Part shown: one piece after another, positions 12,804 through 38,823 of the stretch | Layout: every line of letters starts with the position of its first letter | Numbering within the stretch: position 1 is the stretch's first letter | Assembly (NCBI GenBank): GCA_027021705.1 | Contig: JALUTT010000171.1 | Coordinates: 1-64,000, forward strand | Source: Anaerolineae bacterium | Lineage (GTDB): Bacteria > Chloroflexota > Anaerolineae > S140-20 | Reading direction: 5' to 3' | Length of the DNA: 64,000 nt | Notes under the pieces: model-generated | Seen by the model: only the letters and a program-made list of their open reading frames with translations | What the model was told of the DNA's origin: nothing | Database searches by the model: none | Made by a program: the position numbers and the translations under genes

Positions 12804-12869
12804 AGTATACCCTGTTCCCCGGCCATCGGACAGGGCTGTTTGGCCTACAGGTAGGTAGGCCAAATGGCC
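12804..12869 (-). promoter_or_regulatory. promoter with paired GGCCAnnTGGCC-like boxes (PCYCGC gene)
   Basis: -10 TATACT (12809..12804); boxes GGCTGTTTGGCC at 12834 and GGCCAAATGGCC at 12858. Confidence 0.7.
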
Positions 12870-12882
12870 TGGTCACTCCCTC

Positions 12883-12960
12883 TAAGGGGCAAGGGGCAAG
12901 GGGCAGGGGGCAAGGGGCAAGGAGCAAGGACTGAGGACCGAGGACTGAGGACTAAGGACC
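12883..12960. repeat. heptamer tandem repeats (AAGGGGC)n then (AGGACTG)n
   Basis: about 11 consecutive 7-bp units. Confidence 0.85.
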
Positions 12961-15645
12961 AATTGACACCCGCCCGGTGGTGCCATCCACGGTGATCGTC
13001 TGGCCGTCCCGGATGCGCCGGGTCGCCTCGGGGACGTTGACCACGGCCGGCACGCCGTACTCCCGCGCCACGATCGCGCCGTGGGAGAGCTGACCGCCCA
13101 CCTCCAGGACCAGCCCGGCGACCAGGGGGAAGATGGGCGTCCAGCCGGGGTCGGTGGCCCGTGTGACCAGGATCTCCCCCGGGCGCAGCCGGGTCGCCTC
13201 CCGGGGATCGTGGATGATGCGGGCCGTGCCCCGTACCCGACCGCCGCTGGCGGGTAGCCCCTGCAGCACCGAACCCGGCGGCTCATCGGGCGGGGGGAGT
13301 TCGATGGGGCGGCCATCGGGGCCGATCACCTCAGGGGCCTCGACGCCGAACCAGTGCTCGTAGGCCCTGCGTCGCCCGGCCACCAGCGCGGGCAGGTCCA
13401 GGCCGGCCGCTGCCGGATCCCCCGTGGTGATGAGCTTCTCCACATCGGGGACGGTGAGGAAAAAGACGTCGTTGGGCTCCCGCAGCCAGCCCCGCTCGGT
13501 CCACCGCCGGCCGAGGACCCGGTAGATGCGCACGAAGGGGAAGGCGATCTTGGTGATGTAGTGGCGTCCGTTGTCCCGCAGGCGCACGGCCTGTTGGGCC
13601 CTGGCCAGGACACGCCGGAAGATGGCCCGACGGAGGGGACCCAGGTGGGCCTCGACCCAGGCGATCGCCTCCTCCCGCCGCCGGCGCTGCCGCGCTTCGG
13701 CCTCGGCCGGGTTCACCCGATCGCCGGCCCGCAGGTAGCCGGCCACGATCTCGATGACCTGTTCCGGCGCTTCGGCCCAGCGGGGGTGGAGCCACTCCCC
13801 TTCGTTGGGGCAGCGGTGGCCGTGGCGCTGGAGGAAGCGCTCCAGCATCTGGATCACCGGTCGGGCCTGGGGCGTCTCCCGCAGCCGGGCCAGGGCCACC
13901 TCGGGGGGATGGTCCAGCAGGAGGTCGTCCAGGCCCAGGGCGCGGACCTGCTGGGCCATCTCCCAGAGGGCGAGGCCCATCTCGGCGGCGTAGACCCCGG
14001 AGAGGCCGGTGACGAGGTCGTGGGCCAGCTCCTCCCGACCGCACCAGCGGGCCAGCAGCTGCTGCAGCAGGCTGAACGCGGCCATCGCCGAACCGCTCAC
14101 CGCCGTGTGCAGGTTGATCACCTGGGTGGAGCGCTTCACCCAGACCTGGCGGATCTCGGCCCACAGTTCGGCGTCGTCGGCCTGCTCCAGGTCCCGCTCC
14201 AGGAAGTCGGCCACCCAGCGGTCAATCTGGGGGAAGAGGGCTTCCAGTTCCCGTTCAATCCCCAGCCGTCCCGCGATCAGGCTCAGGAAGGCCGGCAGGC
14301 GGCGCAGGAACCGGAGGGGGCGGAAGCGCTCCCGGCGCCGGGGGTGGGAGCGGCGTCGGCTCCCGAGGGCGGCGTCCACGAAGGAGCCAGGGAGCCCCAA
14401 CTCCTGGGTCAGGATGTGGGCGATGGCTCCCTCGTTGTAGTAGATGCGACCGTAGAAGCGCCGGCCCCATTGGATGTCGTCCAGGTAGGGAATGCGCAGA
14501 CCGCGCAGGAAGTAACGGGCCCCCTCGTTCATCGAGAGGGGGATGCCGGACCACAGCAGCGGGCTCACAGGGTAGGGCCAGGCCTCTCCCACGTTGACCC
14601 GCGTCCACAGGTCGAAGGGTTGGGGCGGCTTCTCCTCCAGGACGGGCCAGTCGTCGTCGCCGGGGACCTCGACCTCTCGGCCAGAGGGCTCCGGCGGCAG
14701 CGCCGTGATGGGCCGCGACTGGAGGACGAAGAGGTCGGAGCCGGCCAGGCACCACTCGATGTCCTGGGGAGCGCCGAAGTGGGCCTCGATCTCCCGGCCC
14801 AGCCGGGCCAGCCGAGCCACCTGGGCGTCGTCCAGGACGGGCACGTGTCGCCGCCCTGCCTCGACCTCGACCTCCGCCGTCCCGCCGGCCGCCGGCACCG
14901 ACATCACCCCCTTCTCGGCGACGATGCGCCGTCGGACCCGACCGGTCGCCTTCTCGACGACGAAGGTGTCGGGCGTCACCCGCCCTCCGACGATGGCCTC
15001 GCCCAGCCCCCAGGCCGCGTTGATGACGATCTCGTCCCGGGCCCCCGTCGTCGGGTTGGCGGTGAAGAGGATGCCCGAGACGTCGGCCGGCACCATCTGC
15101 TGCACGACGACGGCCAGGCCGACCGCCGCCGGGACGATGCCCTGGCGGGCCCGGTAGGCGATGGCGCGGGCGGTCCACAAGCTGGCCCAGCACCACCTCA
15201 CCGCCTCCAGCAGGGCCTCCTCCCCCTGCACGTTCAGGTAGGTCTCCTGTTGACCGGCAAAGCTGGCCTCCGGGAGGTCCTCGGCGGTGGCGGAGGAGCG
15301 GACGGCGACGGGGAGGGGGGCGGCGGGGGAGAGGTGGCGGTAGGCCCGGACGATGGCGGCGGCCACGGGCTCGGGGATGCTCCCCCGTTCAAAGAGCCGT
15401 CGGATGGCCCTGGAGGCAGCCTCCAGGGAGGCGGGATCGTCGGGGGAAGCCTGCCGGCCCATCGCCTCCAGGTGCTCCTGCAGGCTGTTGGCCTCGACGA
15501 AGGCGCGGTAAGCAGCCGTGGTGATGACGAAGCCCGGCGGCACGGGAAAGCCGGCCTGGGCCAGGCGGCTCAGGCCCGCTCCCTTGCCGCCGACGATCGC
15601 CAGCGGAGCTTCTGGGGCGTCGAGGGGAAGGGTGAAGGATGGCAT
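12952..15645 (-). CDS. PEP/pyruvate-binding + PEP-utilizing phosphotransferase (rifampicin-phosphotransferase-like architecture)
   Basis: VGGKGAGL, VAVRSSATAED, FAGQ, LQSRPIT; C-terminal TDPGWTP...SHGAIVARE. Start taken at MPSF because the longer ORF overlaps the permease. Confidence 0.88.
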   Translation of the reverse strand: MPSFTLPLDAPEAPLAIVGGKGAGLSRLAQAGFPVPPGFVITTAAYRAFVEANSLQEHLEAMGRQASPDDPASLEAASRAIRRLFERGSIPEPVAAAIVRAYRHLSPAAPLPVAVRSSATAEDLPEASFAGQQETYLNVQGEEALLEAVRWCWASLWTARAIAYRARQGIVPAAVGLAVVVQQMVPADVSGILFTANPTTGARDEIVINAAWGLGEAIVGGRVTPDTFVVEKATGRVRRRIVAEKGVMSVPAAGGTAEVEVEAGRRHVPVLDDAQVARLARLGREIEAHFGAPQDIEWCLAGSDLFVLQSRPITALPPEPSGREVEVPGDDDWPVLEEKPPQPFDLWTRVNVGEAWPYPVSPLLWSGIPLSMNEGARYFLRGLRIPYLDDIQWGRRFYGRIYYNEGAIAHILTQELGLPGSFVDAALGSRRRSHPRRRERFRPLRFLRRLPAFLSLIAGRLGIERELEALFPQIDRWVADFLERDLEQADDAELWAEIRQVWVKRSTQVINLHTAVSGSAMAAFSLLQQLLARWCGREELAHDLVTGLSGVYAAEMGLALWEMAQQVRALGLDDLLLDHPPEVALARLRETPQARPVIQMLERFLQRHGHRCPNEGEWLHPRWAEAPEQVIEIVAGYLRAGDRVNPAEAEARQRRRREEAIAWVEAHLGPLRRAIFRRVLARAQQAVRLRDNGRHYITKIAFPFVRIYRVLGRRWTERGWLREPNDVFFLTVPDVEKLITTGDPAAAGLDLPALVAGRRRAYEHWFGVEAPEVIGPDGRPIELPPPDEPPGSVLQGLPASGGRVRGTARIIHDPREATRLRPGEILVTRATDPGWTPIFPLVAGLVLEVGGQLSHGAIVAREYGVPAVVNVPEATRRIRDGQTITVDGTTGRVSIGP

Positions 15646-15653
15646 ACCTATGG

Positions 15654-16784
15654 CTAGGCCAGGCTGCGGCGCAGGCGGAGCACGCCGGTGCTCAGCAGCA
15701 CCGCCGCCATCAGCAGCAGGGCCAACGTCTGAGGCCACAGGACCTCCAGCCCGACACCTTTGAGGAAGATCCCCAGCGTCACCTCCACGTAGTAGCGCAG
15801 CGGGCTCAGGTAGATCAGCCACTGCAGGAGGCGGGGCATGTTCTGGACGGGCACGATCGTCCCGGACAGGAAGGCCAGCGGGAACAGGATGAAGAAGGCC
15901 AGCAGGAGGGTCTGCTGCATGTTCCGGGCGATGGTCCCCATCAACACGCCGATGCCGCTGCTGCTGAGGAACATGAGCACCGAGATGGCGTAGAAAAGCA
16001 GCAGGCTGCCGCGCAGGGGCACGCCGAAGATCCACATAGACATCGCGACCCCGATGGTCAGGCCCACCAGCTTGAGCAGGACCATCGGCACGATCTTGGC
16101 GGTGATCAGTTCGGCCCCGGTGATGGGGGTGATCATCAACTGCTCGAAGGTGCCGGCTTCCTTCTCCCGGACGATGGCGGCAGCAGGAACCAGCACGCCC
16201 AGCAGCAGCACCGAGATGGCCAGCATGGTCAGCATAATGAAGTGGACATACTTGAGCTGCGGCATGTAGAGGACCTGGATCTGGTTCTTCACCCGGGTCA
16301 GGAGCTGCTGCTTGCCCGGCCCCCCACGGGTGGTCTGGGCCAGCACCACCTGAGCGTTGTACTCCCGCAGCAGGTCGCTGGCGTCGGCCAGGGCCTGCCC
16401 GGCGATGCTGCTGTTGGAGCCGTCCACGACGATCTGCACCTTCGCCGACCGGCCGGCCCTGAGGTCCTGGCTGAAGCCGGCCGGGATGATCAGCGCGAAC
16501 TGAACCTCTCCCCGATCCATCAGCCGGTCAACGGCCGCCGGGTCCTCCAGCCGCTCCACCAGCCGGAAGCTCTCCCGTTGGACGAAGGCTTCCACCAGGG
16601 CTTGGCTCTCGGCCGAGCGATCGCCGTCGTAGACCGCCGTGGGCAGGTTCCGCACCTCTAGGGTCAAGGCCCAGCCGCAGATGGCGATCTCGACGAAGGT
16701 GTAGAGGATGAGCAGCACCAGCGCCTTGTCGCGGAAGAACTGGATGAACTCCTTGCGCATGAGACCCATCAGGCGACGTTTCAT
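15654..16784 (-). CDS. ABC-2 transporter permease (YbhR-like)
   Basis: KEFIQFFRD, VREKEAGTFEQL, FLSG..P, SPLRYY. Confidence 0.9.
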   Translation of the reverse strand: MKRRLMGLMRKEFIQFFRDKALVLLILYTFVEIAICGWALTLEVRNLPTAVYDGDRSAESQALVEAFVQRESFRLVERLEDPAAVDRLMDRGEVQFALIIPAGFSQDLRAGRSAKVQIVVDGSNSSIAGQALADASDLLREYNAQVVLAQTTRGGPGKQQLLTRVKNQIQVLYMPQLKYVHFIMLTMLAISVLLLGVLVPAAAIVREKEAGTFEQLMITPITGAELITAKIVPMVLLKLVGLTIGVAMSMWIFGVPLRGSLLLFYAISVLMFLSSSGIGVLMGTIARNMQQTLLLAFFILFPLAFLSGTIVPVQNMPRLLQWLIYLSPLRYYVEVTLGIFLKGVGLEVLWPQTLALLLMAAVLLSTGVLRLRRSLA

Positions 16785-16797
16785 CTTACCCTACCTT

Positions 16798-17934
16798 TTA
16801 CCCTACCTTCTTCTTGAAGCGCAACGATGCCAGCACCACCAGCGCCGCCGTGTAGACCACCAGCACCGCCAACGGCCCTGACCAGACCTCCGGTCCAACC
16901 CCCTTCAGGAAGATGCCATAGGTGATGTCGGTGTAGTGGCGGGCGGGGAAGAGGTAGGAGTAGACCTGGAAGACCTTGGGCATGGCGAAGATGGGGAACA
17001 TAAAGCCGGAGAAGATGAAGGCGGGCATCATGGTGAGGACGATGGCCAGTAGCATGGCCGCCAGTTGGCTGCGGGTGAGGGTGCTCACCAGCAGGCCGAT
17101 GGCCACCGTGCTGATCACGTAAGGCACGGAGGCCAGCAGGAAGAGCCCCATGCTCCCCCGCAGGGGCACCTCGAACCAGTAGCGCGTCGCCAGCAGCACC
17201 AGGACCAACTCGGCGAAGGCGATGAGGATGTAGGGGATCAGCTTGCCCACGATGAAGGCCCAGGGCCGCAGCGGCGAGACGAAGATCTGCTGGATGGAGC
17301 CACGCTCCTTCTCCCGCACGATGGCCAGCGCCGAGAGCAGCGGCGGGAAGGCCATCAGGATCACGCCGATGAGGCCGGGGACGATGAAGTTGACGCTCTT
17401 CAGGGAGGGGTTGTAGCGCACCCGGGGCACGGCTACCACGGCCGGGACCGGGGGGCCATCCTGCTCCCTCCCCCGCGTGGTCAGGGAGATGGGGAACCGC
17501 CGACTGGTGAAGAGATCGTTGAGGGCATTCGCGTAGCTCTGGATCACCCGGGCCGAGGTGGGGAAGGTGCCGTCCACCAGCGTCTGCACGGTGGCCGTTC
17601 GGCCCTCGGCCATGGTCTGGGCGAAGCCGGCGGGGATCAGCAGGGCGACCTGGGCCTTCCCCTGGTCTAGCAGGCGCTGGGCTTCGTCGAAGCTGGTGGG
17701 CCGGTAGCGGAGGTCGAAGCGGCCAGAGCCGACGAAGAGCTGGACGTAAGCCCGGCTCTCGGCGCTGTCGTCCAGGTCCACCACCGCCATAGGCACATCC
17801 CTGACGTCCAGGTTCAGGGAGTAGGCGAAGACGAAGAGGAGCACCAGGGGCAAGAAGATGGCGACGCCCAGAGTGTAGGGATCGCGCCAGATCTCGCGGA
17901 ACTCCTTCTTGAGGATAGGGAGGATGCCTTTCAT
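16798..17934 (-). CDS. ABC-2 transporter permease (YbhS-like)
   Basis: KKEFREIWRD, YNPSLKS.NFIVPG, REKERGS; ATG overlaps the upstream TGA. Confidence 0.9.
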   Translation of the reverse strand: MKGILPILKKEFREIWRDPYTLGVAIFLPLVLLFVFAYSLNLDVRDVPMAVVDLDDSAESRAYVQLFVGSGRFDLRYRPTSFDEAQRLLDQGKAQVALLIPAGFAQTMAEGRTATVQTLVDGTFPTSARVIQSYANALNDLFTSRRFPISLTTRGREQDGPPVPAVVAVPRVRYNPSLKSVNFIVPGLIGVILMAFPPLLSALAIVREKERGSIQQIFVSPLRPWAFIVGKLIPYILIAFAELVLVLLATRYWFEVPLRGSMGLFLLASVPYVISTVAIGLLVSTLTRSQLAAMLLAIVLTMMPAFIFSGFMFPIFAMPKVFQVYSYLFPARHYTDITYGIFLKGVGPEVWSGPLAVLVVYTAALVVLASLRFKKKVG

Positions 17935-20569: not shown

Positions 20570-20634
20570 AGGATACCACATTTGCCCCTGCTGCAACAGC
20601 GCCAAATCACCTATGGGACATAGGTAATTCCCCC
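20570..20634 (-). promoter_or_regulatory. promoter with variant paired boxes (ABC operon)
   Basis: -10 TATCCT; CGCCAAATCACC at 20600 and GGTAATTCCCCC at 20623, same spacing as the other island promoters. Confidence 0.45.
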
Positions 20635-23554: not shown

Positions 23555-24238
23555 CTACGGCTTTCCGCCCGCTGGGATCTCCACCCACCCCCGTTGCACG
23601 GCCAGCACCGCTGCTTCGGTGCGGGAGCGTACCCCCAGCTTACCGTAGATGCTGGCCAGGTGGTTCTCCACGGTCCGCACGCTTAGGTACAGGTGCTGAG
23701 CGATCTCCTTGTTGCTCAGGCCGTGGCACACCAGGGTGAGGATCTCCCGCTCGCGGGGCGTCAGGCATCCGTGGGGGCCGGTGGACAAAGGCTGCGCTTG
23801 GGCCAGGTGCGCGATGAGGTCCTGGGCCAGGTCCGGGGAGAGCACCATCTCGCCTCGGGCAGCCTGGCGCAGGGCGATCGCCAGTTCGTCGGTGGTGATG
23901 TCGGCGGAGAGGCAACCGATGGCTCCGGCTTGCAAGGTCGCCAGGGCCTGGTGCAGAGACCAGGCGAGGGAAAGGGAGAGCACCCTCACCCGAGGGTGCT
24001 CTCGCAGGAATGTGGGCAATCGCTCCAGGTCAGCGGCTCGAGGGCAGGTCAGAAGCACCAGATCCGATTTCTCCTCAAGCGAAGGGGCGGTCAGCGCGGC
24101 CAGGTCCTCCGCCTGTCCGATGGGCTCGATGCCCGGGAGCCCGGCCATCAGGGCCGAGAGGGCTTCCCCCAGCAGCCTATGCGGACTGACGAGGAGCACC
24201 CGTATGGGATTGGAGCGGCAAGACCCGGCCTCGCTCAT
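23555..24238 (-). CDS. NarL/LuxR-family regulator with atypical receiver domain
   Basis: LTPRE...GLSNKEIA...SVRTVENH HTH; receiver reads LLVSPH and DLVLLTC instead of VDDH and DxxxMD. Confidence 0.88.
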   Translation of the reverse strand: MSEAGSCRSNPIRVLLVSPHRLLGEALSALMAGLPGIEPIGQAEDLAALTAPSLEEKSDLVLLTCPRAADLERLPTFLREHPRVRVLSLSLAWSLHQALATLQAGAIGCLSADITTDELAIALRQAARGEMVLSPDLAQDLIAHLAQAQPLSTGPHGCLTPREREILTLVCHGLSNKEIAQHLYLSVRTVENHLASIYGKLGVRSRTEAAVLAVQRGWVEIPAGGKP

Positions 24239-24257: not shown

Positions 24258-26495
<2,238 letters not shown>

Positions 26496-26637: not shown

Positions 26638-27138
26638 TTAGAGGGGAGTGCGGCGGCGACCGAGGAGCAGTGTGCCTAGGAGGGTGATCCCCGCCATGCC
26701 AGCCCAGAAGAGGAGCAGAAACGGGTTGGGGTGTCTACGGTACAGACGCCGGTAGGTTCGACCGGCCCGGCCTGCCACGTAGCTCTCGGCGGCCAGTTCC
26801 CAGGCCGCCTGGTGGACGAGGAGAGCGGCGGCGAGGCGCACCAGCCGCTTTCCCAGCGGACGCGGCCTCGACGCCGGTCCGTGTCGCCACAGCCAGAGGA
26901 CGTGGGCAACGGCCAGCGGCAGCGTCTGAAGGTGTCCCAGCTCGTGCCAGTAGCTGAGGCGGTATCGCTCCTCCTGGGGTAGCCCACGCCGGATGAAGAG
27001 GTTGACCAGGGGAGGGTGGGGCAGCGGGAATGACCCCACCCTCACCAGATGCCAGTAGTCACCTTCGATCACGATCTCGCCCGGCAGGCCGTACCAGGTG
27101 CGCACCTGGCGGGAGAGTCCTTCCGCGTCCTCACTCAC
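26638..27138 (-). CDS. hypothetical membrane protein with HExxH motif
   Basis: WHELGH plus downstream WELAAE; start overlaps the end of the DsbA gene. Confidence 0.7.
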   Translation of the reverse strand: MSEDAEGLSRQVRTWYGLPGEIVIEGDYWHLVRVGSFPLPHPPLVNLFIRRGLPQEERYRLSYWHELGHLQTLPLAVAHVLWLWRHGPASRPRPLGKRLVRLAAALLVHQAAWELAAESYVAGRAGRTYRRLYRRHPNPFLLLFWAGMAGITLLGTLLLGRRRTPL

Positions 27139-27934
27139 GAGTTGCCTCCAACTCTGCTTCGATCATCTGCTGGAAAGCTTCGAAGGGTTGAGCGCCCACG
27201 AGGGGCTTGCCGTTGATCAGGAAGGTGGGAGTGCCCCTCACGCCCAGGGATCGGGCGATGGACGTCTCCGAACGCACGATGGAAGTGTACCGACCGGAGT
27301 CCAAGCAGGTCTCGAACGCCTCGCGGTCCAACCCCAGCTCGGTGGCGAACTGTTTCAGGTTCTCCCGGCTGAAAGCCCCCTGGTTCTCACCGGCCTGGCG
27401 CTCGAAGAGCAGGTCGTGATAGGCCCAGAAAGCCCCTTGCTCGGCGGCACATTCGGTCGCCTCGGCGGCCCACTGGGACTCCGGCCCCAGGAAGGCGAAG
27501 TGCCAGTAGCCGAAACGGACCTCTCCCGTTTGCACGTAGACCTGGTCAATCTGACGCCCCGCGTCAGCGGCGAATCGCCCGCAGAAGGGTCACTGGAAGT
27601 CGCCAAACTCGATGATGGTCACGGGAGCGTTGGGGTTCCCTTTGAAGTGGCGCACCCGGGCGGTCAGGTCTTCCAACGAGCCTGGCAGGCTCGCCGGGTT
27701 GACGGGTGTGGGGTCGAGGCTGGCCGGCGGAGGATCGGCGTCCTGGGCCGAGGCGGCCGGGGAGCCGAAGAGGGATCGCGGCGTCACCAGCGGGCGTACC
27801 CCGTAGCCGATCAGCACGCCGATCACCAGCCCGACGGCGAGCATGGCCAACGGATTGGTCCAGATCGGGGATGAGGAGGCCGGAGACGGCGCCTCATCCG
27901 ACTGCTGTTGGGGCAGAAACGGCTCTCTCTCCAT
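27131..27934 (-). CDS. DsbA/BdbD-like thioredoxin-fold protein, predicted selenoprotein (UGA 27590-27592 = Sec; 267 aa)
   Basis: two in-frame ORFs joined across the UGA: APVTIIEFGDFQ-U-PFCGRF...GVRGTPTFLING; hairpin CTGACGC-GGG-GCGTCAG downstream. Confidence 0.92.
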
Positions 27935-27952
27935 ACCGTGACAACCTCCACG

Positions 27953-28966
27953 TCAGGGGTGGGCGGGTTCCTGGCTCTCCCGTCCCAGCATCTTCTCCAG
28001 TTCGTGGCTCACGTCGTGGACTTCGCCGGCTTTCACGGCGGTCAGCAGGGCCTCCAGTTGGGCCTTCTCCTCCCCCGTCGCCTCTTCAATGGCCTGTTCC
28101 AGGTGGGCGATCGCGTCGTCGTAGTTGTCGCCCTCCAGGGCACTCAGGGCCAGGACGATGTGCAGTTGCATCGGGCTCAGGTCCTCCCCCTCGGCCTGGA
28201 GGAGCAGGGTTTCCAGTTCGTGCTCGGCCTCATGGACCTTGTTCTCCTCCAGCAGGGTCAGGATCTCCTGGGCCTTCTGCTGGGACTCGCCCTCGCCGGA
28301 GGCGACGAGGTCCTGGAGGTGGGCTCGGGCGTCGGGGAGGTCCTCGGCCTGGAGGGAGAGGAGGGCCAGCCGCAGATGGGCCGCCTCGGTCATAGAGCCG
28401 AGGAAGGGTCCCGCACCGGTGGGCGGCCCCAAGCTCAGGATGAAGGCAGCGATCTTCTCCAACTCCTCATCGCTGATCTGGTCGGGGCCGAAGGCGGGCA
28501 TCTGGACGCCGGGTGGGGAGACAGGGCGGGGCTCCCGCACCTGCTTGAAGACGGCCTCTTTGGAGTGGCCCGCCAGGGCAGGCCCCAGGTCCTCGACCCC
28601 TTCGCCGTTCTCGCCGTGGCAGGCGGCACAACCTTTGGCCACAAAGAGGGCTTGCCCTTCGGCGATGATCTCAGCTTCTACGTCGGCAACAGGCTCCTCG
28701 GTTGCCATAGGTTCCTCGGTCTCGGCGGGCATCATTTCGGTCTCGGCGGGGGCCATCTCGGTCTCGGCGGGCATCATCTCGGTCTCGGTGGGCATCATCT
28801 CGGTCCCGGCGGGGGCCATCTCGGTCGCAGCCGACGGAAGTGGTGTGGGCGCTGTCGTGGGGGCCGCTGTGGGCGTGGCCTGACCGCCACAGGCAGCCAG
28901 GACCAGCACCAGGGCGAGGACTGCCACCGATAATCCGATCGTCATACGGCGCTTGCTCTTGATCAC
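27953..28966 (-). CDS. c-type cytochrome lipoprotein with Met-rich repeats
   Basis: lipobox LAAC, heme motif CAACH, distal MPAF, repeated His-bearing helical C-terminal segment. Confidence 0.85.
   Translation of the reverse strand: MIKSKRRMTIGLSVAVLALVLVLAACGGQATPTAAPTTAPTPLPSAATEMAPAGTEMMPTETEMMPAETEMAPAETEMMPAETEEPMATEEPVADVEAEIIAEGQALFVAKGCAACHGENGEGVEDLGPALAGHSKEAVFKQVREPRPVSPPGVQMPAFGPDQISDEELEKIAAFILSLGPPTGAGPFLGSMTEAAHLRLALLSLQAEDLPDARAHLQDLVASGEGESQQKAQEILTLLEENKVHEAEHELETLLLQAEGEDLSPMQLHIVLALSALEGDNYDDAIAHLEQAIEEATGEEKAQLEALLTAVKAGEVHDVSHELEKMLGRESQEPAHP
28716..28825 (-). repeat. intragenic 21-bp tandem repeat x5 encoding TEM(A/M)P(A/T)(E/G)
   Basis: direct reading of DNA and protein. 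Confidence 0.9.
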
Positions 28967-28982
28967 GCGATTATCCTCCCTC

Positions 28983-29513
28983 TCAGTCCAGACTCTTCAG
29001 GAAGTCCAACAGGTCTTCTAGGTCTTCGTCGCTCATCGTCCAGCGGGGCATCGGCCATTCCAGCGGTTCTCCCGCCGGGTTGAGCCCCTGGGTGATGGCG
29101 CGTTTGATGGTCTCGTCGGTGTAGGGGGGATGCTCTTCCGCCCCTTCGTCGTGCTCCATCTTCTCGGCGGTCAGGGTCTTGTAGCGGATGTCGGGGGCGA
29201 CGAAGGTTTCCATCATCATCCGCACGGTGCCGCCACGACCATCGGGGCCGTGGCAACTAGCACAGCTCAGGGCGCCCCCACCCATCATCCCCATCCCCAT
29301 GTCCGAGGTGATAGGGGTACCCCGCTGGCTGGTGGCGGTGAAGTAGATCTGCTCACCGTTGGAGCGGAACTGGCGTCCGAAGCCGAATCCCCGCCCGCGC
29401 CAGCCTCCAGCGGTACAGCCGGCCAGGACGAGGACCAGCCCCAGGAGGGCAAGGCCTCGGACGCCGGATCTGGTGTATCGGAAGCGTGGTTGGTTGGGTG
29501 TTTCTGTGTCCAT
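28983..29513 (-). CDS. c-type cytochrome lipoprotein
   Basis: LAGC lipobox, CASCHG.DGRG, distal MPRW, Met/Gly-rich segment. Confidence 0.85.
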   Translation of the reverse strand: MDTETPNQPRFRYTRSGVRGLALLGLVLVLAGCTAGGWRGRGFGFGRQFRSNGEQIYFTATSQRGTPITSDMGMGMMGGGALSCASCHGPDGRGGTVRMMMETFVAPDIRYKTLTAEKMEHDEGAEEHPPYTDETIKRAITQGLNPAGEPLEWPMPRWTMSDEDLEDLLDFLKSLD

Positions 29514-29744
29514 ACTCTGTCCTTTGTGAACTCTGTCGGTTCGGATCCGCCTTCTCCCGCCCCCGGTCGGCGGATGAGGATCCGCCGGGGGCTTGGGGAA
29601 GCGGAGTCCGACGGATCGTGGGTTTCTCCTCTCCTGCTCCCCCCGATGGACAATCTGGCGCAAGAGGAAGCCTGAGGAGGGGGAGAGCGCCGGACCTGTC
29701 CCCCCGCCGCGCCGGATAGCGTGTCCGGCAGGAGGGGATAGCGG

Positions 29745-30035
29745 TCAGACGGGCTCCCGCAGGTATCCCCCGGCCTGCAGCAGCCTGCGAACGTGGTGGC
29801 TGTTGACGCCGAAGCCGATCAGCACCTCGCCGTCAATGACGAGTGTAGGGGTGATGAAGCGACCGGCCAGGCTCTTGAGTTCGTCCATGTAGAGGGGGTT
29901 GGTGGTGACATCCTTCTCGGTGAAGGGGATGTTGTGCCGGGCGAAGAACCTCTTCGCCGCCTGGCAGTCGCCTCACGTGGGCTGGGTGTAGAGGACGACG
30001 CCTCTGGGTCTGCGGTGGAAGAGTCGGCGAAACAT
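29745..30035 (-). CDS. glutaredoxin/NrdH-like protein, predicted selenoprotein (UGA 29973-29975 = Sec; 96 aa); absent from the ORF track
   Basis: MFRRLFHRRPRGVVLYTQPT-U-GDCQAAKRFFARHNIPFTEKDV...ITPTLVIDGEVLIGF; AAGGAG RBS; hairpin GGCGAAGA-GGT-TCTTCGCC. Confidence 0.9.
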
Positions 30036-30121: not shown

Positions 30122-30186
30122 AGTATACACCAAGGTCGGAAACCCGACCACGGCCATTTGGCCTATTGCTCCCTCGCTGTTTGGCC
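30122..30186 (-). promoter_or_regulatory. promoter with paired boxes (glutaredoxin-cytochrome-DsbA operon)
   Basis: -10 TATACT; GGCCATTTGGCC at 30152 and CGCTGTTTGGCC at 30175. Confidence 0.7.
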
Positions 30187-32591: not shown

Positions 32592-32812
32592 GATGACACC
32601 TCCCGGGTCAGGGTGATGACCCACTCAGGGTTTCCCGTCTGCTCGATCTTCACGCTGAACCCCCGGCGTCGGGCCTGGGTGGGGATGCTCTCCAGGGCCG
32701 GCGCGTGGTCGGTGATCACCTCCAGGACTTCGCCCTCGGGCAGCCGTTTCATCGCTTCAACCGCTTTGAGCATCGGGTAAGGGCAGATCTCGCCTCGCAC
32801 GTCCAATCGCAT
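32588..32812 (-). CDS. TusA/SirA-family sulfur carrier (YeeD/YedF-like)
   Basis: LDVRGEICPYP motif; GAGGAGG RBS. Confidence 0.9.
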   Translation of the reverse strand: MRLDVRGEICPYPMLKAVEAMKRLPEGEVLEVITDHAPALESIPTQARRRGFSVKIEQTGNPEWVITLTREVSS

Positions 32813-32834: not shown

Positions 32835-34328
32835 TCAGGGTAGTCGTCGGATGATCTGAACGCCGATCCAGGCCCCGCCAACCAGCCCCAGCCCGAAGAC
32901 CCAGCCGTTGAGGGCCAGGGAGGGGATGGCGGAGAAGAAGCCGCCGATGTTGCACCCCATGGCCAGGCGAGCGCCGTAGCCCATAAGCAGCCCTCCGCTG
33001 AAGGTCTGCAGGTAGCGGTAGCGGCGGCGGGGGAAGCGGAGTTTGAACTCACCGGCCAAGAGGGCGGCGGTGAAGGCTCCGAAAATGAGCCCCCAGTTCA
33101 GCAGCGTGCCGCCACTCAGCCAGGGGATATGGCTCAGCAGTTCCTTGCCGGCCGGCTTGTCACCGAAGTAGAGCAGGTTCTGGGCCGGATAGCCCAGGGT
33201 GTAGGCGACCCATCCCGCCCAGCGGGAGACGGCGGTGGTGATCCCCCACGGCTTTTTGTACAGGTACTCGAAGATGTTGAGCATTCCTAGAGCCAAGCCG
33301 CCGGCGGCCGCGGGCCAGGCTCGCACGAAGATCTGCTGCCAGCCGACGCGCAGGCGGTCGGCGAAGGTGCGGACCGGCCCGGTCGGCTCCTCCCAGGTGG
33401 AGATGCCACCGGCCCGGCTCTCCCACCAGACGATCAACAGGTAGAAGCCGAAGAGGACGATGAGGGTGAGGACAAGGGCGGGGCCCCATCCCAGCGCCCG
33501 GGGGAACCAGAACTTGGGCTGTCGGGAGATGACGTTGGGCCACCACCACTCCCAGTGTAGGGCCAGGACGAAAGAGCCGGCGATCATCCCCACCAGGGCG
33601 ACCCACTGAGCCACGTAGCCCTCGCCCATCCGGTAGAGGGTGCCCGAGGCGCACCCACCGGCGACGACCATCCCGGTGCCGAAAAGCAGGCCCCCCAGCA
33701 GGGTGTGCCAGCCGGTGGGGTAGACGTTGCCGGCCATCCCCTGGGTCGGGTCGGGCACCGCCTTGTACATAATGAGCGTGAAGCCGACGGTGGCAATGGC
33801 CAGGCCGACGATCACCCCTTTCATCAGGCGGCCATCCTGGAGCAGGAAGAGGTCCCGGAAGGCCGAGGTGAAGCAGAAGCGGCTCCGCTGGACCACGAAG
33901 CCGAAGGCCAGGCCAAAGGTCCAGAAGATGGCCAGGGAGGTGCTAATCCGGGCGTAGAAGAGGAGCACCAGCAGTGCCCCCACGGTGGCCAAGAGGCCGT
34001 AGAGGATGTGCCGCCGGATGCCGGGCAGGATGGGAAGGGTGGACGCTTTGGCCGTCGCCCCACCGGCCACGGCAGGCACCAGGGTGACCTTGTCGTCAGG
34101 TTGGAGCGGGGTGGCCAGGCCCTGCAGAGCGCGGGCGTCCTGGCCGTTGACGAAGAAGCGGACGTAGGGTCGGAGTTGACCGGTCTCGTCCAGCAGGTGG
34201 ACGCGGAGGTCAGGGAACCGCTCGCTCACCTCTGCGACGAGAGCGCCCAGCTCGTCGGCGGTGACCTCCACCTGGGCCTGACCTTCGGTCATCCGACGCA
34301 GGAATGTGGGAAAGTACAAGGTTGCCAT
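32835..34328 (-). CDS. MoaD/CysO ubiquitin-like domain fused to YeeE/YedE-family transporter
   Basis: aa 1-90 beta-grasp ending VPAVAGG with no stop; then QRSRFCF, GGCASG and GCNIG YeeE motifs. Confidence 0.9.
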   Translation of the reverse strand: MATLYFPTFLRRMTEGQAQVEVTADELGALVAEVSERFPDLRVHLLDETGQLRPYVRFFVNGQDARALQGLATPLQPDDKVTLVPAVAGGATAKASTLPILPGIRRHILYGLLATVGALLVLLFYARISTSLAIFWTFGLAFGFVVQRSRFCFTSAFRDLFLLQDGRLMKGVIVGLAIATVGFTLIMYKAVPDPTQGMAGNVYPTGWHTLLGGLLFGTGMVVAGGCASGTLYRMGEGYVAQWVALVGMIAGSFVLALHWEWWWPNVISRQPKFWFPRALGWGPALVLTLIVLFGFYLLIVWWESRAGGISTWEEPTGPVRTFADRLRVGWQQIFVRAWPAAAGGLALGMLNIFEYLYKKPWGITTAVSRWAGWVAYTLGYPAQNLLYFGDKPAGKELLSHIPWLSGGTLLNWGLIFGAFTAALLAGEFKLRFPRRRYRYLQTFSGGLLMGYGARLAMGCNIGGFFSAIPSLALNGWVFGLGLVGGAWIGVQIIRRLP

Positions 34329-34824: not shown

Positions 34825-35394
34825 TTAGTCGGTTTGGGAGAGCAAATCCCGGATAACGGCGTCCAATTCGCCCGGCATGAACGGCCCAACCTTGGTCAGA
34901 ACGATGTACCCCTCCCGGTCAATGACGAAGGTCTCGGGGACCCCGGTGATGCGGTAGGCGGCGGAGATGCGCCCTTGTAGGTCGGGGCCGTTGGGATAGG
35001 TGATGTCGAACTCCTCCAAGTAGGCGCGGGCCTTGCTCTCGATGTCCACGTAGTCCACGCCCAGGAGCACGACTCCCTGATCCCGGTACTTGCGCCACAC
35101 CGCTTCCAGCTCGGGAGCCTCCCGGCGGCACTCGACGCACCAGGAGGCCCAGAAGTTGACGACGACGATCCGTCCGCGCAGTTGGGAGAGGGTGACCTCG
35201 CCACTGGTGAACTCGTTTTCGTAGCCGCTGAAGATGGGCAGCGTGAAGTCGGGGGCCAGGCCCGACTCCGGCCGGCCCTGGGCCTGACGGACGAGCCCCC
35301 AGCCCAGGAGTCCCAACAGCGTGAAGATGCTCACCCAGACCAACAGACGACCGATCCGCAGGCGGGCGCTCGGTCGCGTGGCGTTCTCGCTCAT
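34825..35394 (-). CDS. TlpA/CcmG-family membrane-anchored thiol:disulfide oxidoreductase
   Basis: APDFTL, VVNFWASWCVEC, GVPETFVID. Confidence 0.92.
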   Translation of the reverse strand: MSENATRPSARLRIGRLLVWVSIFTLLGLLGWGLVRQAQGRPESGLAPDFTLPIFSGYENEFTSGEVTLSQLRGRIVVVNFWASWCVECRREAPELEAVWRKYRDQGVVLLGVDYVDIESKARAYLEEFDITYPNGPDLQGRISAAYRITGVPETFVIDREGYIVLTKVGPFMPGELDAVIRDLLSQTD

Positions 35395-35397
35395 CGC

Positions 35398-36441
35398 TCA
35401 CCTCCGGGTCGTCTCCAGCCAGAAGGCACCCACGTAGAGGGTCAGCACGCGCCGCAGCACCGGCGGCCAGCGGACGAGGGCCATCACCCCCAGGACCAGG
35501 GGGAGGGGCAGCCGGGGGAGCACCCGCTGGGCCAGGCAGAGCAGGGCGTAGCCAGAACGGCGAGCAGCTACGAGGCGGCGGTAGGCCTCCCGTCCCTCCT
35601 CCAGGGTGATCTCACCCTCCAGGACCTGGCGCAGCAGGCGGCCCAGTTGGGTTCCGAAGAAGAGGGCAGGGCGGATCCCCTCGCCTGTGAGCCCCATGCA
35701 CTGACCGGCGGCATCTCCCACCAGGAAGAGGTCGCCGATCACCGGATCGCGCAGGGCGTAGGGGAAGTAGCCGCCGTGGACGCCGTCCCGCTGCACCCCC
35801 AGGCTGCTCAGGAAGCGGTCCAGACCATTGCCCAGGCGGGTCTCCCCCCGATAGCTGGCGATGCCGATACGGGTGAGGTCGCCGATGGGGAAGGCCCAGG
35901 TGACCCCCATAGGGAGCAGCCGGCGGGGGTCATACCAGAAGTGTAGCCCGTCATCCCGATAGGCCGCCGTCGTCTCGATGCCGAAGTTCAGCCGATCCCG
36001 GCGCACCAACGCGGGGTGGAGCCGTCGGCCCAGCACAGCCCGCCAGCCCGAAGCATCCACGATCAGGTCCCCCTGGAAGGTGCCTTGGGAGGTCCGCACC
36101 CGATCCCCCTCTAGGTCCAGCGTGGCGGCCAGGACGAACTCGGCATCCCCCTGCTCCCGCAGGAGGTGACAGAGGCGGGCGTAGTCGAAGGTGCAGAAGG
36201 GCTTGTCCATCGGGTAGACGAAGGTCCGTCCCGCCGAGTGGATCACCAGACGGTCGTGGACTTGGAGGATGGATTCCTCCAGCCCCAGAGCCTGGAGGGT
36301 GTTGACCAGCGTCCCGCAGGCCGAGGTCTGGCCGGTGCCGATAGGTTTGCGGTCCAGCAGGAGCACCCGTCGGCCTCGGAGCTGGGCGGCGACGGCCAGC
36401 CCGGCGAAGCTGGCCCCGGCGATGATCACCTCGTAGCGCAT
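35398..36441 (-). CDS. FAD-dependent oxidoreductase (geranylgeranyl reductase-like)
   Basis: IIAGASFAG, VDASG, W.FP, LVGDAAG...TGEGI. Confidence 0.8.
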   Translation of the reverse strand: MRYEVIIAGASFAGLAVAAQLRGRRVLLLDRKPIGTGQTSACGTLVNTLQALGLEESILQVHDRLVIHSAGRTFVYPMDKPFCTFDYARLCHLLREQGDAEFVLAATLDLEGDRVRTSQGTFQGDLIVDASGWRAVLGRRLHPALVRRDRLNFGIETTAAYRDDGLHFWYDPRRLLPMGVTWAFPIGDLTRIGIASYRGETRLGNGLDRFLSSLGVQRDGVHGGYFPYALRDPVIGDLFLVGDAAGQCMGLTGEGIRPALFFGTQLGRLLRQVLEGEITLEEGREAYRRLVAARRSGYALLCLAQRVLPRLPLPLVLGVMALVRWPPVLRRVLTLYVGAFWLETTRR

Positions 36442-36478
36442 CGTCTCACAGCCTTGTGGCCCGGTTCGGGCCCTGCCT

Positions 36479-36955
36479 TCATCGCCCTTTGTTCACCAAG
36501 GAGTACCCGGCCGCCTTCCAGGCGATCATCCCGCCGTCCAGGTTCCAGACGTCGGTGTAGCCCAGTTTGACCAGCGTGCGGGCGGCGACGGCGCTCATAC
36601 CCCCGCTACGGCAGTAGACCACAAGCCGGGCTCCCTTGTCGGCAGGCAACTGATCCAGGTTCTGCTCGATCTCGTTGAAAGGGATGAAGAGGTCGGTTCC
36701 TTCGATCTCCCCCTCGTAGGGGACGTGGACGTTGATGAGGGGGAAGTCCTTCTCCTTCAGCATCGCGGCCAGGCCGGCGGCGCTGACGTCGGTGTAACTG
36801 CCACCTCCCTCCACCGGCACTTTCTGGGTCTCCGAAGCCAGGTCAACGGATCCCGATGGGAAGGCGGGGGTGGTCTTCGGGCTACTACAGGCCGCCACGA
36901 CGAAGAGGACGGCGAGCAGGATGAGCAAGAGGGTCAAGCCTTTAGGTTTGGTCAT
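36479..36955 (-). CDS. rhodanese-domain lipoprotein
   Basis: VAAC lipobox, YCRSG, NLDGGMIAW. Confidence 0.88.
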   Translation of the reverse strand: MTKPKGLTLLLILLAVLFVVAACSSPKTTPAFPSGSVDLASETQKVPVEGGGSYTDVSAAGLAAMLKEKDFPLINVHVPYEGEIEGTDLFIPFNEIEQNLDQLPADKGARLVVYCRSGGMSAVAARTLVKLGYTDVWNLDGGMIAWKAAGYSLVNKGR

Positions 36956-37631
36956 CGGTTGTCACTCCCAGAGCGCGTTCTTCGGTGATCTCTCCCTGCA
37001 GGGCCTGGAGTTCCTGGCGGGTTCGCAGGGCTTCCAGCTCCGTGATCTTGGCTTCCAGGGTTCCCCGCAGTTCGTCGAGCCGGGTCAGGTCTGCCTGGAG
37101 GGCCTGGGCCTGGGCTTCCAGCCGGGCCCGGGTCTCCAGCAGTTCCTGCTTTTCCATCAAGTAGCGGCGTGCTAGGGCTTCGTCGGTCGCCACCACCCGG
37201 CGGGCGGCTTCCTCCCGCTTCTGAATGCGGGCCGCTACGTCCTCGATCTGCTCCCGCAGCGAGGCGAGCACCTGGGCGGAGGCCTCCCGTGCCTCCTCCA
37301 GTTGGGCGATCCGGGCGCGGAGCTGCCGCAGGGCGGCCTCTTCCTCACTTTCTCGGCGCCGGAGCCGGCCTTTCCGCCGGCGTTCGTAGCGCAGCACCGC
37401 CAAGTCCACGGGCCGGAGCTGGCCTCGGGCGGCCAGCTCCTTGAGGGCGCTGAAGGTCTCCTCGTCTATCTCGCCCCGCCCGTACATCTCGTAGAGCTGT
37501 TCCTGGAGCGAGGGGCCGGAGGGCTGCGGCTGCCCCATCGGACGGTGGACGGCCTGGCGTCGGGAGCGGTTGTCCCGCACCAGGGTGTCCGCCAGGTCGA
37601 AGAGCCGGAACAGGTCTGGGCCACATCCCAT
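36942..37631 (-). CDS. SHOCT-like + PspA-like coiled-coil protein
   Basis: YGRGEIDEETF then a long coiled coil; directly follows pspA. Confidence 0.7.
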   Translation of the reverse strand: MGCGPDLFRLFDLADTLVRDNRSRRQAVHRPMGQPQPSGPSLQEQLYEMYGRGEIDEETFSALKELAARGQLRPVDLAVLRYERRRKGRLRRRESEEEAALRQLRARIAQLEEAREASAQVLASLREQIEDVAARIQKREEAARRVVATDEALARRYLMEKQELLETRARLEAQAQALQADLTRLDELRGTLEAKITELEALRTRQELQALQGEITEERALGVTTDDQT

Positions 37632-37656
37632 CAGGTCCCCTCCTTCTCGTGCTCCC

Positions 37657-38361
37657 TCACGACGTGGTCACCTCCCGCTTGAGCCGGGCCAGTTCGGCCT
37701 CGACAGCCTCGGAGCGGGTGATGCGGGCCAGTTCGCGGTCAATCATGTCCATCCCAGGCTCCAGCACGTTCTCGAGGGTGCCGGTGGCGATCAACTCTTC
37801 GATGACCTCCGCCCGGGCCTGCATCTGCTGGATGCGCTCTTCAGCCCGTTGGATCACCCGCCCCACATCGGACAGCTCCTTGGAGACGCCGCTGAGCGCT
37901 TCCTGCACCTTCAGTTGGGCCTGGGCCGAATCGTAGACGGCCTTCAGCTCTTCCCTTTTGCTACGGAAGAGCTCGATCCGCGTGCGCAGGCTGGCCTGAG
38001 CCGTCTTCAGGCTCTCCAGTTGCTGTTCCAGGCTGGCGATGTTGGCCTCCAGTTCCTCCTGGCGGGCCAGGGCGAACTGTTTGCGCTCCAGGGCCAGCTT
38101 CGCCAGGTCCTCCCGGCCCTTCAGCAGGGCGGTCCTGGCCTGTTCCTCGTAGCGCTCGATGGCCGTGGCCAGGGCGTTCCGCTGACTCTCCAGCTTGTGC
38201 TTGGCGGTCGCTACCTCGACCAGGCTCTGGTTGATCTGACGCAGGTTCTCCTGGAGCCGGCTCAGGCTGTAGTCCAGGCTTGCCTTGGGGTCCTCCAGGT
38301 CATCCAGGGCCTTGTGGGCCCGAGCCCGGAAGATCGCTTTGAGTCGAGCCAGCAGTCCCAT
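37657..38361 (-). CDS. pspA: PspA/IM30 family protein
   Basis: MGLLARL...LEDP, GREDLAKLALERK, terminal VEAELARLK. Confidence 0.88.
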   Translation of the reverse strand: MGLLARLKAIFRARAHKALDDLEDPKASLDYSLSRLQENLRQINQSLVEVATAKHKLESQRNALATAIERYEEQARTALLKGREDLAKLALERKQFALARQEELEANIASLEQQLESLKTAQASLRTRIELFRSKREELKAVYDSAQAQLKVQEALSGVSKELSDVGRVIQRAEERIQQMQARAEVIEELIATGTLENVLEPGMDMIDRELARITRSEAVEAELARLKREVTTS

Positions 38362-38390
38362 CGTTCGTACCTCCTCGGTCCCTGAGGGTC

Positions 38391-38642
38391 CTACGCGGAC
38401 TCCTCAAGGGTGCTGCCGCAGTAGGGGCAGATGGCCCAGTCTACATTCACGGCCCGGTGGCAGGAGGGGCACGACCGCTTCAGCGGGGTGCCACAGCGGG
38501 GGCAGAGGATGAAGTCGGCTTCAACGGGACTGCCACAGTTGGGACAGGATTGGGCGATTTCGGCCACCTGTGTCCCCGGTTTGGGGTCGTGAGTCTCTTG
38601 GTGAGCGGTGTGTCTGGTGTGGGAATGTCCTCCACAGCACAT
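38391..38642 (-). CDS. double zinc-ribbon protein with N-terminal CCGGH/His-rich segment
   Basis: four CxxC pairs; AAGGAGG RBS before ATG 38642. Confidence 0.8.
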   Translation of the reverse strand: MCCGGHSHTRHTAHQETHDPKPGTQVAEIAQSCPNCGSPVEADFILCPRCGTPLKRSCPSCHRAVNVDWAICPYCGSTLEESA

Positions 38643-38758
38643 AGTGGGTGCCTCCTTAGCTAGTTGTCGGATTTGAGCGTGACCGAGACGGGGGGTGTAG
38701 GGCGACCGATCGGTCGCCCCACTCCCCTGACGGGTTCCGGCCCCACTCGTCTGCTTTG

Positions 38759-38823
38759 AGTATAACATCGGTGCGGTGGGACCGGTAGCGCCATTTGGTC
38801 CGTCAGGCGTAGGCCATTTTGCG
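38759..38823 (-). promoter_or_regulatory. promoter with paired boxes (zinc ribbon-pspA operon)
   Basis: -10 TATACT; CGCCATTTGGTC at 38789 and GGCCATTTTGCG at 38812. Confidence 0.65.

Follow-up and report, generated by a model that had tools for sequence, protein, structure and literature searches.

Promoter modules and genes at the locus

The window considered here, the whole stretch of 64,000 nucleotides that was analysed (G000:C171:1-64000), comes from an Anaerolineae genome assembly of 5.19 Mb with 66% G+C in 183 contigs (G000; its other contigs are cited as C5, C27 and C99), and DNA contigs from four runs represent a strain about 98-99% identical to it; among the runs listed as containing this DNA, none is recorded as RNA. 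On its minus strand the window carries four promoters built on one plan, which lead into operons that include a predicted copper ATPase and three selenoprotein genes. Read on the plus strand, AGTATA stands at 12804, 26560, 30122 and 38759 and is followed, after a 24-bp gap and exactly 30 bp on, by a 12-mer of the type sGCCAwwTGGCs (GGCTGTTTGGCC at 12834, CGCCAATTGACC at 26590, GGCCATTTGGCC at 30152 and CGCCATTTGGTC at 38789), with a second 12-mer starting 24 bp further on at 12858 and 23 bp further on at 26613, 30175 and 38812. On the minus strand the distal box comes first, the proximal box follows after 11-12 bp, and 24 bp then separate it from TATACT. The scores listed below come from a composite matrix that joins both boxes, the first part of the −35 element and the −10 element, and that was trained solely on 21 promoters of other genomes.

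12804..12869, minus strand: promoter module 1, with −10 TATACT at 12809-12804, proximal box GGCCAAACAGCC at 12845-12834, distal box GGCCATTTGGCC at 12869-12858, box starts 24 bp apart; composite score 57.1, the best of the genome
26560..26624, minus strand: promoter module 2, with −10 TATACT at 26565-26560, proximal box GGTCAATTGGCG at 26601-26590, distal box AGCCAAACAGCG at 26624-26613; composite score 38.8
30122..30186, minus strand: promoter module 3, with −10 TATACT at 30127-30122, proximal box GGCCAAATGGCC at 30163-30152, distal box GGCCAAACAGCG at 30186-30175; composite score 51.2
38759..38823, minus strand: promoter module 4, with −10 TATACT at 38764-38759, proximal box GACCAAATGGCG at 38800-38789, distal box CGCAAAATGGCC at 38823-38812; composite score 52.3
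20570..20611, minus strand: weak single-box variant, with −10-like TATCCT at 20575-20570 (AGGATA on the plus strand) and one box, GGTGATTTGGCG, at 20611-20600; composite score 7.8

Gene content was assigned with Pfam profiles for domains, with TIGR01511 and NCBIfam for the ATPases and for a response regulator outside the window (RR-Q, described below), and by inspection of in-frame TGA codons for selenocysteine.

12233..12697, minus strand: PCYCGC-family protein (PF13798, 49.6 bits), first gene after module 1, with TGA at 12358-12356 (HAAY-U-RIC)
10288-12099, minus strand: GAF-HisKA_3 histidine kinase (Pfam), downstream of the PCYCGC gene
9583-10215, minus strand: canonical NarL-type regulator (Pfam), downstream of the GAF kinase
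24258..26495, minus strand: copper-type P1B ATPase with a His-rich N-terminus, first gene after module 2 (TIGR01511, 608.4 bits; cut-off 397)
23555..24238, minus strand: P0001, a regulator of 227 residues with a GerE/LuxR-type helix-turn-helix (PF00196, 71.7 bits; cut-off 23.5) and a degenerate receiver, second gene after module 2
29745-30035, minus strand: glutaredoxin-like protein, first in the module 3 operon (26638..30035), with TGA at 29975-29973
28983-29663, minus strand: cytochrome c, module 3 operon
27953-28966, minus strand: cytochrome c-TPR protein, module 3 operon
27131-27934, minus strand: DsbA-like protein, module 3 operon, with TGA at 27592-27590
26638-27138, minus strand: unknown protein of 166 residues, module 3 operon
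38391-38642, minus strand: Cys/His-rich zinc-ribbon protein, first in the module 4 operon (34825..38642)
37657-38361, minus strand: PspA, module 4 operon
36942-37631, minus strand: unknown protein of 229 residues, module 4 operon
36479-36955, minus strand: rhodanese, module 4 operon
35398-36441, minus strand: oxidoreductase of the flavin adenine dinucleotide type, module 4 operon
34825-35394, minus strand: TlpA/AhpC-TSA thioredoxin-like protein, module 4 operon; the promoter-like site at 34818-34790 begins the next unit

An earlier note on this DNA had listed the four AGTATA positions, the 12-mers, the 30-bp offset and the second copy 23-24 bp on, all of which proved exact; the gene content that it gave for the four targets is borne out by Pfam and the in-frame TGA codons, and the three selenoprotein genes it named all lie behind module promoters. 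It had also offered 20570 as a weaker fifth case. There the −10-like element and one box do stand at the spacing of the four modules and the proximal part scores 21.0, but composite scoring found no second, distal box (−13.2), and the total, although ranking eighth among 10.4 million scanned positions, lies inside the range of the reversed-genome control (maximum 8.3). This site is a possible single-box variant, not an established one. Downstream of it lie an unknown protein of 214 residues (19909-20553) and an ATP-binding cassette (ABC) exporter (15654-19895). The 214-residue protein was compared with the N-terminal part of a fused ABC ATPase adjoining a P0001-like regulator in another locus (L003) and is unrelated to it (E = 2.6), so that the fifth case gains no support from that locus.

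Ordinary promoter-like sites found by a sigma-70 scan at 34818-34790 (strong) and 23508-23481 bound two of the operons. Behind module 1, the GAF kinase and the 9583 regulator possibly share the transcript of the PCYCGC gene. No CxxC-bearing HMA domain was found with Pfam in the 24258-26495 ATPase. The three TGA codons each form a UxxC motif, and the genome encodes the selenocysteine machinery, with tRNA-Sec at C27:33874-33971 and selB (303.7 bits) and selA (566.1 bits) both above their cut-offs. Selenocysteine insertion sequence hairpins can be drawn downstream of the TGA codons, with folding z-scores against shuffles (−0.19, −1.06 and +0.21) that are not distinctive.

Several other features of these regions were recorded. 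Tandem 7-base arrays (GCAAGGG x7, GGACTGA x2.7, AAGGGGC x6.6 and AGGACTG x4.7, at 12174-12223, 12763-12781 and 12884-12959) occupy the spacers flanking the PCYCGC gene on both sides and the DNA immediately before module 1. The interval from module 3 to module 4 holds two gene fusions, triple-rhodanese-ThiF (30492-32624) and ThiS-sulphur-transport (32835-34328), which have the strong promoter-like site at 34818-34790 as their own. In a contig from a hot-spring run (X4, record 18), position 26549 is joined to 28982 with 9 other letters between, so that this more distant relative lacks the DsbA region and has the upstream edge of the ATPase gene set against the cytochrome c gene.

Recurrence of the promoter layout within the genome and across Anaerolineae

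AGTATA occurs only five times on the plus strand of the window, and the pattern AGTATA-N24-SGCYRWWTGRYC has four matches in the window as against none in each of 100 dinucleotide-preserving shuffles of it. Genome-wide, 7 of the 320 TATACT sites examined have, at a 24-bp gap, a 12-mer that agrees with GGCCAAATGGCC at 8 or more of its 12 positions; the four window sites match at 9-12 positions, while the other three match at 8 and appear unrelated. A simple matrix made from the eight boxes gave 21 pairs spaced 20-26 bp apart (about 9 expected from site density), with the four window pairs ranking first to fourth, a pair on C5 fifth and a pair on C99 sixth. The composite matrix, scanned over 10.4 million positions of G000 with a threshold of at least 18 bits, returned exactly seven sites, scoring 32 to 57 with nothing between 8 and 32: the four window modules, C5:27987, C99:85739 and C99:87365. 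By contrast, the reversed genome gave no site of at least 18 bits and a top score of 8.3. The pattern is real and far beyond chance, and a genome-wide motif scan of the kind the earlier note had proposed recovered its four sites together with three more.

These further sites stand in front of recognisable genes. On C5 the box pair is followed after a 24-bp gap by TATAAT, 59 nt upstream of a CopA-type ATPase (C5:28088-30553; TIGR01511 582.3 bits against a cut-off of 397) with two HMA domains of the GMTCxxC type; this ATPase and that at 24258-26495 are copper-translocating P1B ATPases, with metal specificity as predicted from the profile. The gene after the C5 CopA (L259:4606-5364, equivalent to G000:C5:30605-31363) gives a weak match, 63.7 bits where the cut-off is 200, to DfsP, a (seleno)protein of the DUF166 family. 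The first C99 promoter lies upstream of a 'VYRSFD...' protein followed by a DUF2085 protein, and the second upstream of a CxxC/CcdA-like membrane protein of 428 residues, a methyltransferase, a TlpA-like protein and Lgt; the membrane protein is 64% identical to its counterpart in a module-driven operon of G405. A different 12-mer, GACCAAACAGCG, occurs in the window at 55833 and 57042 and also on C37, C72, C16, C42, C67, C139 and C145, twice each on several contigs, and is probably part of a repeat element unrelated to the promoter boxes.

A direct DNA search of the promoter in 20 relatives gave no match outside G000. We then searched 401 genomes of the class with the strict pattern GCNAWWYNGC-N12/13-SRYHRAWYNGCS-N24-TAKAMT, in which only two box spacings are permitted, and obtained 22 matches in 14 genomes, as against none in all 401 with the reversed pattern. 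The 400-genome class sample takes in G345 and G388, which are flagged as unpublished; neither matches the strict pattern, and no example named here depends on either.

An alignment of 26 promoters showed box halves sGCCA and TGGCs symmetric about two A/T bases, with many distal boxes extended to TAGGCCA-ww-TGGCCTA. Positions left free by the pattern are conserved all the same, namely a CT right after the proximal box, an aAyAG flank 5' of both boxes and a GG after the −10 element. A single base pair lies between the proximal box and the −35 position, and the nearly invariant T of the CT is the first base of the −35 hexamer, set by a 17-bp spacer from a −10 element, TATACT, that is close to consensus and often has TGn in front of it (TGG in many of the aligned promoters). 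In all seven G000 promoters the −35 hexamer has at most three of six matches to TTGACA, with only its first T conserved, and a generic sigma-70 scan passes just one of the four in the window; ordinary promoters of this genome read cTTGACA-17-TATACT or TATAAT. Box starts are 23 or 24 bp apart in all seven, as in the 22 strict matches, for which the pattern allowed only those two values. Placing the −10 hexamer at −12 to −7 puts the centres of the boxes near −42.5 and near −65.5 or −66.5 relative to the predicted transcription starts. This layout is the geometry of class-II activator sites, which would use the housekeeping polymerase. The shared architecture first noticed at four promoters is thus that of one conserved class, comprising these four and the three further ones, with a weak −35 element and activator-site geometry.

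The genes behind the module in other genomes support copper as the recurring theme, as judged from their predicted products. They encode CopA or YHS-CopA (G160, G197), CopA after a 'VVRSFDL...CPHHGT' protein and a CsoR-like open reading frame (G393, G160, G238), YHS proteins (G128, G305), PCYCGC proteins (G326, G107), DsbA (G238), TlpA (G107), FTR1-like permeases (G004, G067), a zinc-ribbon protein (G067) and, in the remaining module-bearing genomes, unknown proteins; an HMA protein and CcdA are also found among the downstream genes elsewhere. In many genomes the module is followed first by a gene for a small protein with (V/R)V(Y/V)RSFDL and C-x-CPHHGT-x-x-C-x-C motifs, after which a YHS protein or CopA frequently comes next (L258:3987-4496, equivalent to G000:C99:85986-86495; L096:241-654; L092, L097, L082, L083, L260 and L261). 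The small protein has no Pfam or NCBIfam match and is a candidate metal-binding protein.

Homologs of the PCYCGC and DsbA-like proteins were compared for the TGA codons of the window selenoproteins. TGA occupies the corresponding position in the PCYCGC genes of G326 and G107 (L137 and L140) and in the DsbA gene of G238, where it falls at the CxxC position, and a TGA codon is likewise found in the TlpA gene of G107; all of these lie behind the same promoter class. The PCYCGC family (PF13798) has TGA at one position in three genomes as a selenoprotein, and among open-access papers and preprints naming PCYCGC none concerns its regulation or selenium.

Regulators linked to the module

Genes with a GerE domain are concentrated near these promoters, with 9 in 192 kb around the 21 promoters of other genomes as against 22 in the 5.19 Mb of G000, a density about 11-fold higher. 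Seven of the contexts hold such a gene, and in six of them (G128, G305, G061, G401, G402 and G405) the nearest one carries the recognition helix S-x-RTV-[EQ]-[NG]-HL, the exception being G326 (RTVEKY). The same helix is present in the regulators at 23555 in the window (P0001) and at C99:83352, and the module co-localises with the two related NarL-type lineages to which these belong.

The C99 gene encodes a canonical response regulator, RR-Q (C99:83352-84011), and is followed by a gene for a Cache-HAMP-HisKA_3 kinase (C99:84008-85708); 19 bp separate the end of the kinase gene from the distal box at the first C99 promoter. RR-Q and the canonical regulators adjoining the module in G128, G305 and G061 form one supported clade (98/96). 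With E < 1e-74 as the limit, an RR-Q ortholog is present in 10 of 13 module-bearing genomes as against 66 of 387 others, related genomes in this count not being independent. We scanned 20 loci of RR-Q orthologs in genomes without a strict match, taken by descending score (G233 was skipped because its match touches a contig end), with the composite matrix at thresholds of at least 12 and at least 18 bits. Matches were found in 17 of 20 at the lower and 15 of 20 at the higher threshold, usually in the order regulator, kinase, module, with YHS-CopA, 'VYRSFDL' protein, YHS, PCYCGC, zinc-ribbon, DUF2085, CcdA and His-rich ATPase genes downstream. By contrast, 153 loci (1.66 Mb) around other NarL-type regulators had no composite match of at least 12, and other receiver loci (94 kb) had one, at 12.7. 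RR-Q has no equivalog in NCBIfam, the best family being MadR (182 bits against a cut-off of 300). A 60-residue RR-Q query run on G401-G405 found likely orthologs solely in G401 and G405 (71-74% identity), which is not decisive.

P0001 represents the second lineage. Its N-terminal part has no Response_reg match in Pfam, and when aligned with a canonical regulator the DD pair is replaced by SP or GP, the Asp position is removed by a two-residue deletion and the Lys is replaced, while Trp93 is invariant and Cys109 nearly invariant in the family. With the acidic pocket and the phospho-acceptor Asp lost, P0001 is a pseudo-receiver regulator and not a working response regulator. The family is linked to the module in six of its eight loci (the window, L002, L003, L006, L174 and L175). 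Strict matches occur once in G401, once in G402 and twice in G405, three of the four at 0.4-0.65 kb from the family gene and the fourth, in G405, at about 8 kb. On two short metagenome contigs, L174 and L175, a divergent promoter pair directly upstream of the family gene (L174:700-830 and L175:20-150) shares one distal box; this box is perfectly palindromic (TAGGCAAATATGCCTA), and one of the two promoters leads into the pseudo-receiver gene. Metagenome relatives of P0001 are mostly generic NarL regulators, with L174 and L175 the family members among the matches listed, and of 80 loci on genome contigs only L002-L006 hold family members. The N-terminal domain, searched against 400 class genomes with nine candidates scored per genome, does not separate the family from ordinary receivers (best foreign identity 36%).

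It had been proposed earlier that one of the NarL regulators of this island, at 9583 or 23555, acts at the promoters. The NarL part of that proposal is favoured by the 11-fold enrichment, but the most widely conserved partner of the module is the pair at C99:83352-85708, outside the window. The 23555 candidate stands by its linkage to the module, albeit as a pseudo-receiver protein that lacks the phospho-acceptor Asp, whereas the 9583 candidate, with a different helix and clade and a kinase whose ortholog loci lack the module (0 of 27), did not hold up. The regulator is probably of the NarL type and other than the 9583 one, RR-Q and P0001 being the candidates best linked to the module in these genomes.

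The proposed circuit, its alternatives and known systems

The most probable reading, which we put at about 0.68, is that the four sites belong to a single conserved, activator-dependent promoter class through which a NarL/FixJ-type regulator would control a copper-stress regulon. Dimers of a regulator with the helix S-x-RTV-[EQ]-[NG]-HL would bind both boxes cooperatively and recruit the housekeeping RNA polymerase in class-II fashion. The Cache kinase would sense an extracytoplasmic signal, most likely excess copper or thiol damage caused by copper, and phosphorylated RR-Q would then bind both boxes and activate. P0001, made from module 2 behind the copper ATPase, may bind the same or very similar boxes without phosphorylation; because it would itself be transcribed from module 2, it could serve as a phosphorylation-independent amplifier or as a second input. 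The predicted regulon of G000 would comprise the CopA- and CopB-type ATPases, the PCYCGC protein, the glutaredoxin-cytochrome c-DsbA operon, the zinc-ribbon-PspA-rhodanese-TlpA operon, the 'VYRSFD...CPHHGT' protein with its DUF2085 neighbour and the CcdA-like thiol transporter with TlpA.

That these promoters form a regulon is well supported by the comparison of genomes. However, several points weigh against the full reading. The strict pattern was designed on the window's own sites, so the resemblance of its matches is built in, although the zero counts of the controls, the conservation of free positions and the coherent gene content are not. A CsoR-like gene is present in some module operons, and PspA, rhodanese and cytochromes c have no evident copper link, so the signal could be a broader envelope or thiol stress. 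Three of the 20 RR-Q ortholog loci have no composite match, and orthologs of RR-Q are widespread (181 of 401 genomes at E <= 1e-55), the 66 genomes counted above having a close ortholog without a strict match. Two pseudo-receiver loci, L004 and L005, show no module within the available flanking DNA, and the domain tree does not resolve the pseudo-receiver family and the RR-Q clade as sisters. Finally, either RR-Q or P0001 could be the factor at the four window promoters.

This last point bears on the alternative in which P0001 is the main or sole factor at these promoters, autoregulated from module 2 and sensing the signal directly and independently of phosphorylation, with RR-Q serving only its own neighbouring promoters. 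The place of the P0001 gene in the module 2 operon and the linkage of its family to the module favour it, as do the distal boxes, which in the window mostly end in GCCTA like those of promoters linked to the P0001 family, whereas GGCGGGG predominates next to RR-Q kinases and ends the box beside the C99 kinase. However, both box types, GCCTA included, also occur in genomes in which no family member was found, and G004, G107, G067, G197 and G238 carry the module with a best family-profile score of 167 bits, within the range of ordinary NarL regulators, so that the family is not required for the module's existence. The residue that would do the sensing is likewise only putative, and we regard this alternative as unlikely.

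A bolder version of the activator reading, a long shot in our estimate, would make this an undescribed NarL-type copper circuit in which the Cache kinase and its regulator act at the tandem boxes while the P0001 paralog senses Cu(I) or thiol oxidation by its cysteines and locks the regulon on. The UxxC forms of the envelope thiol oxidoreductases PCYCGC, DsbA, glutaredoxin and TlpA would then be co-induced with the copper pumps, and selenium would be a countermeasure to copper stress. In the P0001 family, Cys109 lies at the aromatic-switch position, and most members have a second Cys at the site of the lost phospho-Asp.

Repressors often run copper regulons, and the boxes could be operators of a repressor or of a metal sensor outside the NarL family, such as a CsoR-like protein. 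A CsoR/RcnR-like gene does lie between the first gene and CopA in G160, with similar open reading frames in G393 and G238 (PF02583, 20.7 bits against a cut-off of 22.8). But such genes are found in only 3 of 14 module-bearing genomes and none is near the window promoters. The boxes lie wholly upstream of the weak −35 element and overlap neither the −10 element nor the spacer, whose 17 bp are unlike a MerR-type site, and the CopY box TACAnnTGTA has no occurrence in the window. This makes a repressor very unlikely.

Binding of the boxes by the 9583 regulator with its GAF kinase at 10288 we consider highly improbable. The two genes immediately follow the PCYCGC gene of module 1, and orthologs of both proteins stand 2.7-4.3 kb from the module in G128 and G305, but in those two genomes an RR-Q-clade regulator is nearer (1.6 kb). 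The 9583 helix (SENTVKTHV) differs and the protein falls in the other half of the domain tree, the sensor of the 10288 kinase has orthologs in only 3 of 13 module-bearing genomes, and the 27 loci of kinase orthologs (103 kb) contain no composite match of at least 12. The 9583-regulator orthologs of G128 and G305 (L134:11578-13395 and L135:13657-14544) have two tandem GerE domains in one open frame.

That a promoter cassette was copied, or that the sites resemble one another by chance, without their sharing a regulator, is suggested by the position of all four sites within 26 kb on one strand of one island. This deserves almost no credence, being already contradicted by the 24-bp spacers and flanks, which have no similarity beyond the boxes, by the absence of matches in the shuffles, and by the same layout before functionally related genes in at least 13 other class genomes with no control match.

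If the activator reading is right, it would supply the first defined transcription-factor box and stress regulon for uncultured Anaerolineae, abundant members of hydrothermal, hot-spring and wastewater communities, and a candidate copper-responsive regulator in the NarL family instead of the usual OmpR, MerR and CsoR types. It would also give PCYCGC, the 'VYRSFD...CPHHGT' protein, DUF2085 and the zinc-ribbon protein a context in copper or thiol stress, and selenocysteine forms of PCYCGC, DsbA and TlpA recur behind one promoter class in different genomes. Because the boxes are short and well defined, the model is directly testable with two purified proteins. In open-access papers and preprints we found no description of this promoter system, either in work on copper, response regulators and CopA promoters in Chloroflexi or in work on the NarL family, copper and selenoproteins.

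Through CusRS/CopRS, CueR, CsoR and CopY, copper governs the expression of CopA-type ATPases and accessory copper proteins. CusR and CopR are OmpR-type regulators that use direct repeats, CueR binds between the −35 and −10 elements across a long spacer, and CsoR and CopY are repressors. With boxes upstream of −35, a 17-bp spacer and no CopY box in the window, none of these geometries fits, and no operator overlapping the core promoter (a CopY box or a MerR site in a 19-20-bp spacer) was found at the modules. WhiI and RedZ of Streptomyces are atypical NarL-type regulators independent of phosphorylation. P0001 resembles them in keeping a receiver-like fold and a GerE helix-turn-helix while the acidic pocket and phospho-acceptor Asp are lost, and differs in forming a separate Anaerolineae family with the two-residue deletion at the Asp position, Trp93 and Cys109.

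The closest likeness in layout that we considered is to DevR/DosR of Mycobacterium tuberculosis, a member of the NarL subfamily, for which at least two palindromic Dev boxes in a fixed tandem arrangement are described as the hallmark of the regulon, bound cooperatively from a conserved box to a weaker one to activate transcription (PMC3177182). The modules likewise have tandem inverted-repeat boxes at fixed spacing, the proximal one abutting a weak −35 element, here as read from DNA. By contrast, the Dev box is 18 bp long with G5 and C7 in each half-site, as opposed to sGCCA-ww-TGGCs, and answers a hypoxia or gas signal in another phylum with other regulon content. In gene content, the nearer counterpart is DsbRS of Pseudomonas aeruginosa, described as a copper-sensing two-component system activating dsb genes, with the regulator gene beside its targets and the site TAA-N7-TTAAT kept before homologous operons in other species (10.1101/2020.08.17.255257). 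Thiol-disulfide (Dsb) genes as a copper defence, a regulator gene adjoining its targets and a conserved site would be common to both, while the motif differs, the DsbRS sensor is apparently not of the Cache-HAMP-HisKA_3 type, and the predicted regulon here adds copper ATPases and selenoprotein oxidoreductases. The proposed circuit would belong to a known kind, the two-component-controlled metal-stress regulon; its interest lies in the link between a NarL-type regulator and copper, in the pseudo-receiver paralog and in the selenoproteins that recur among its targets.

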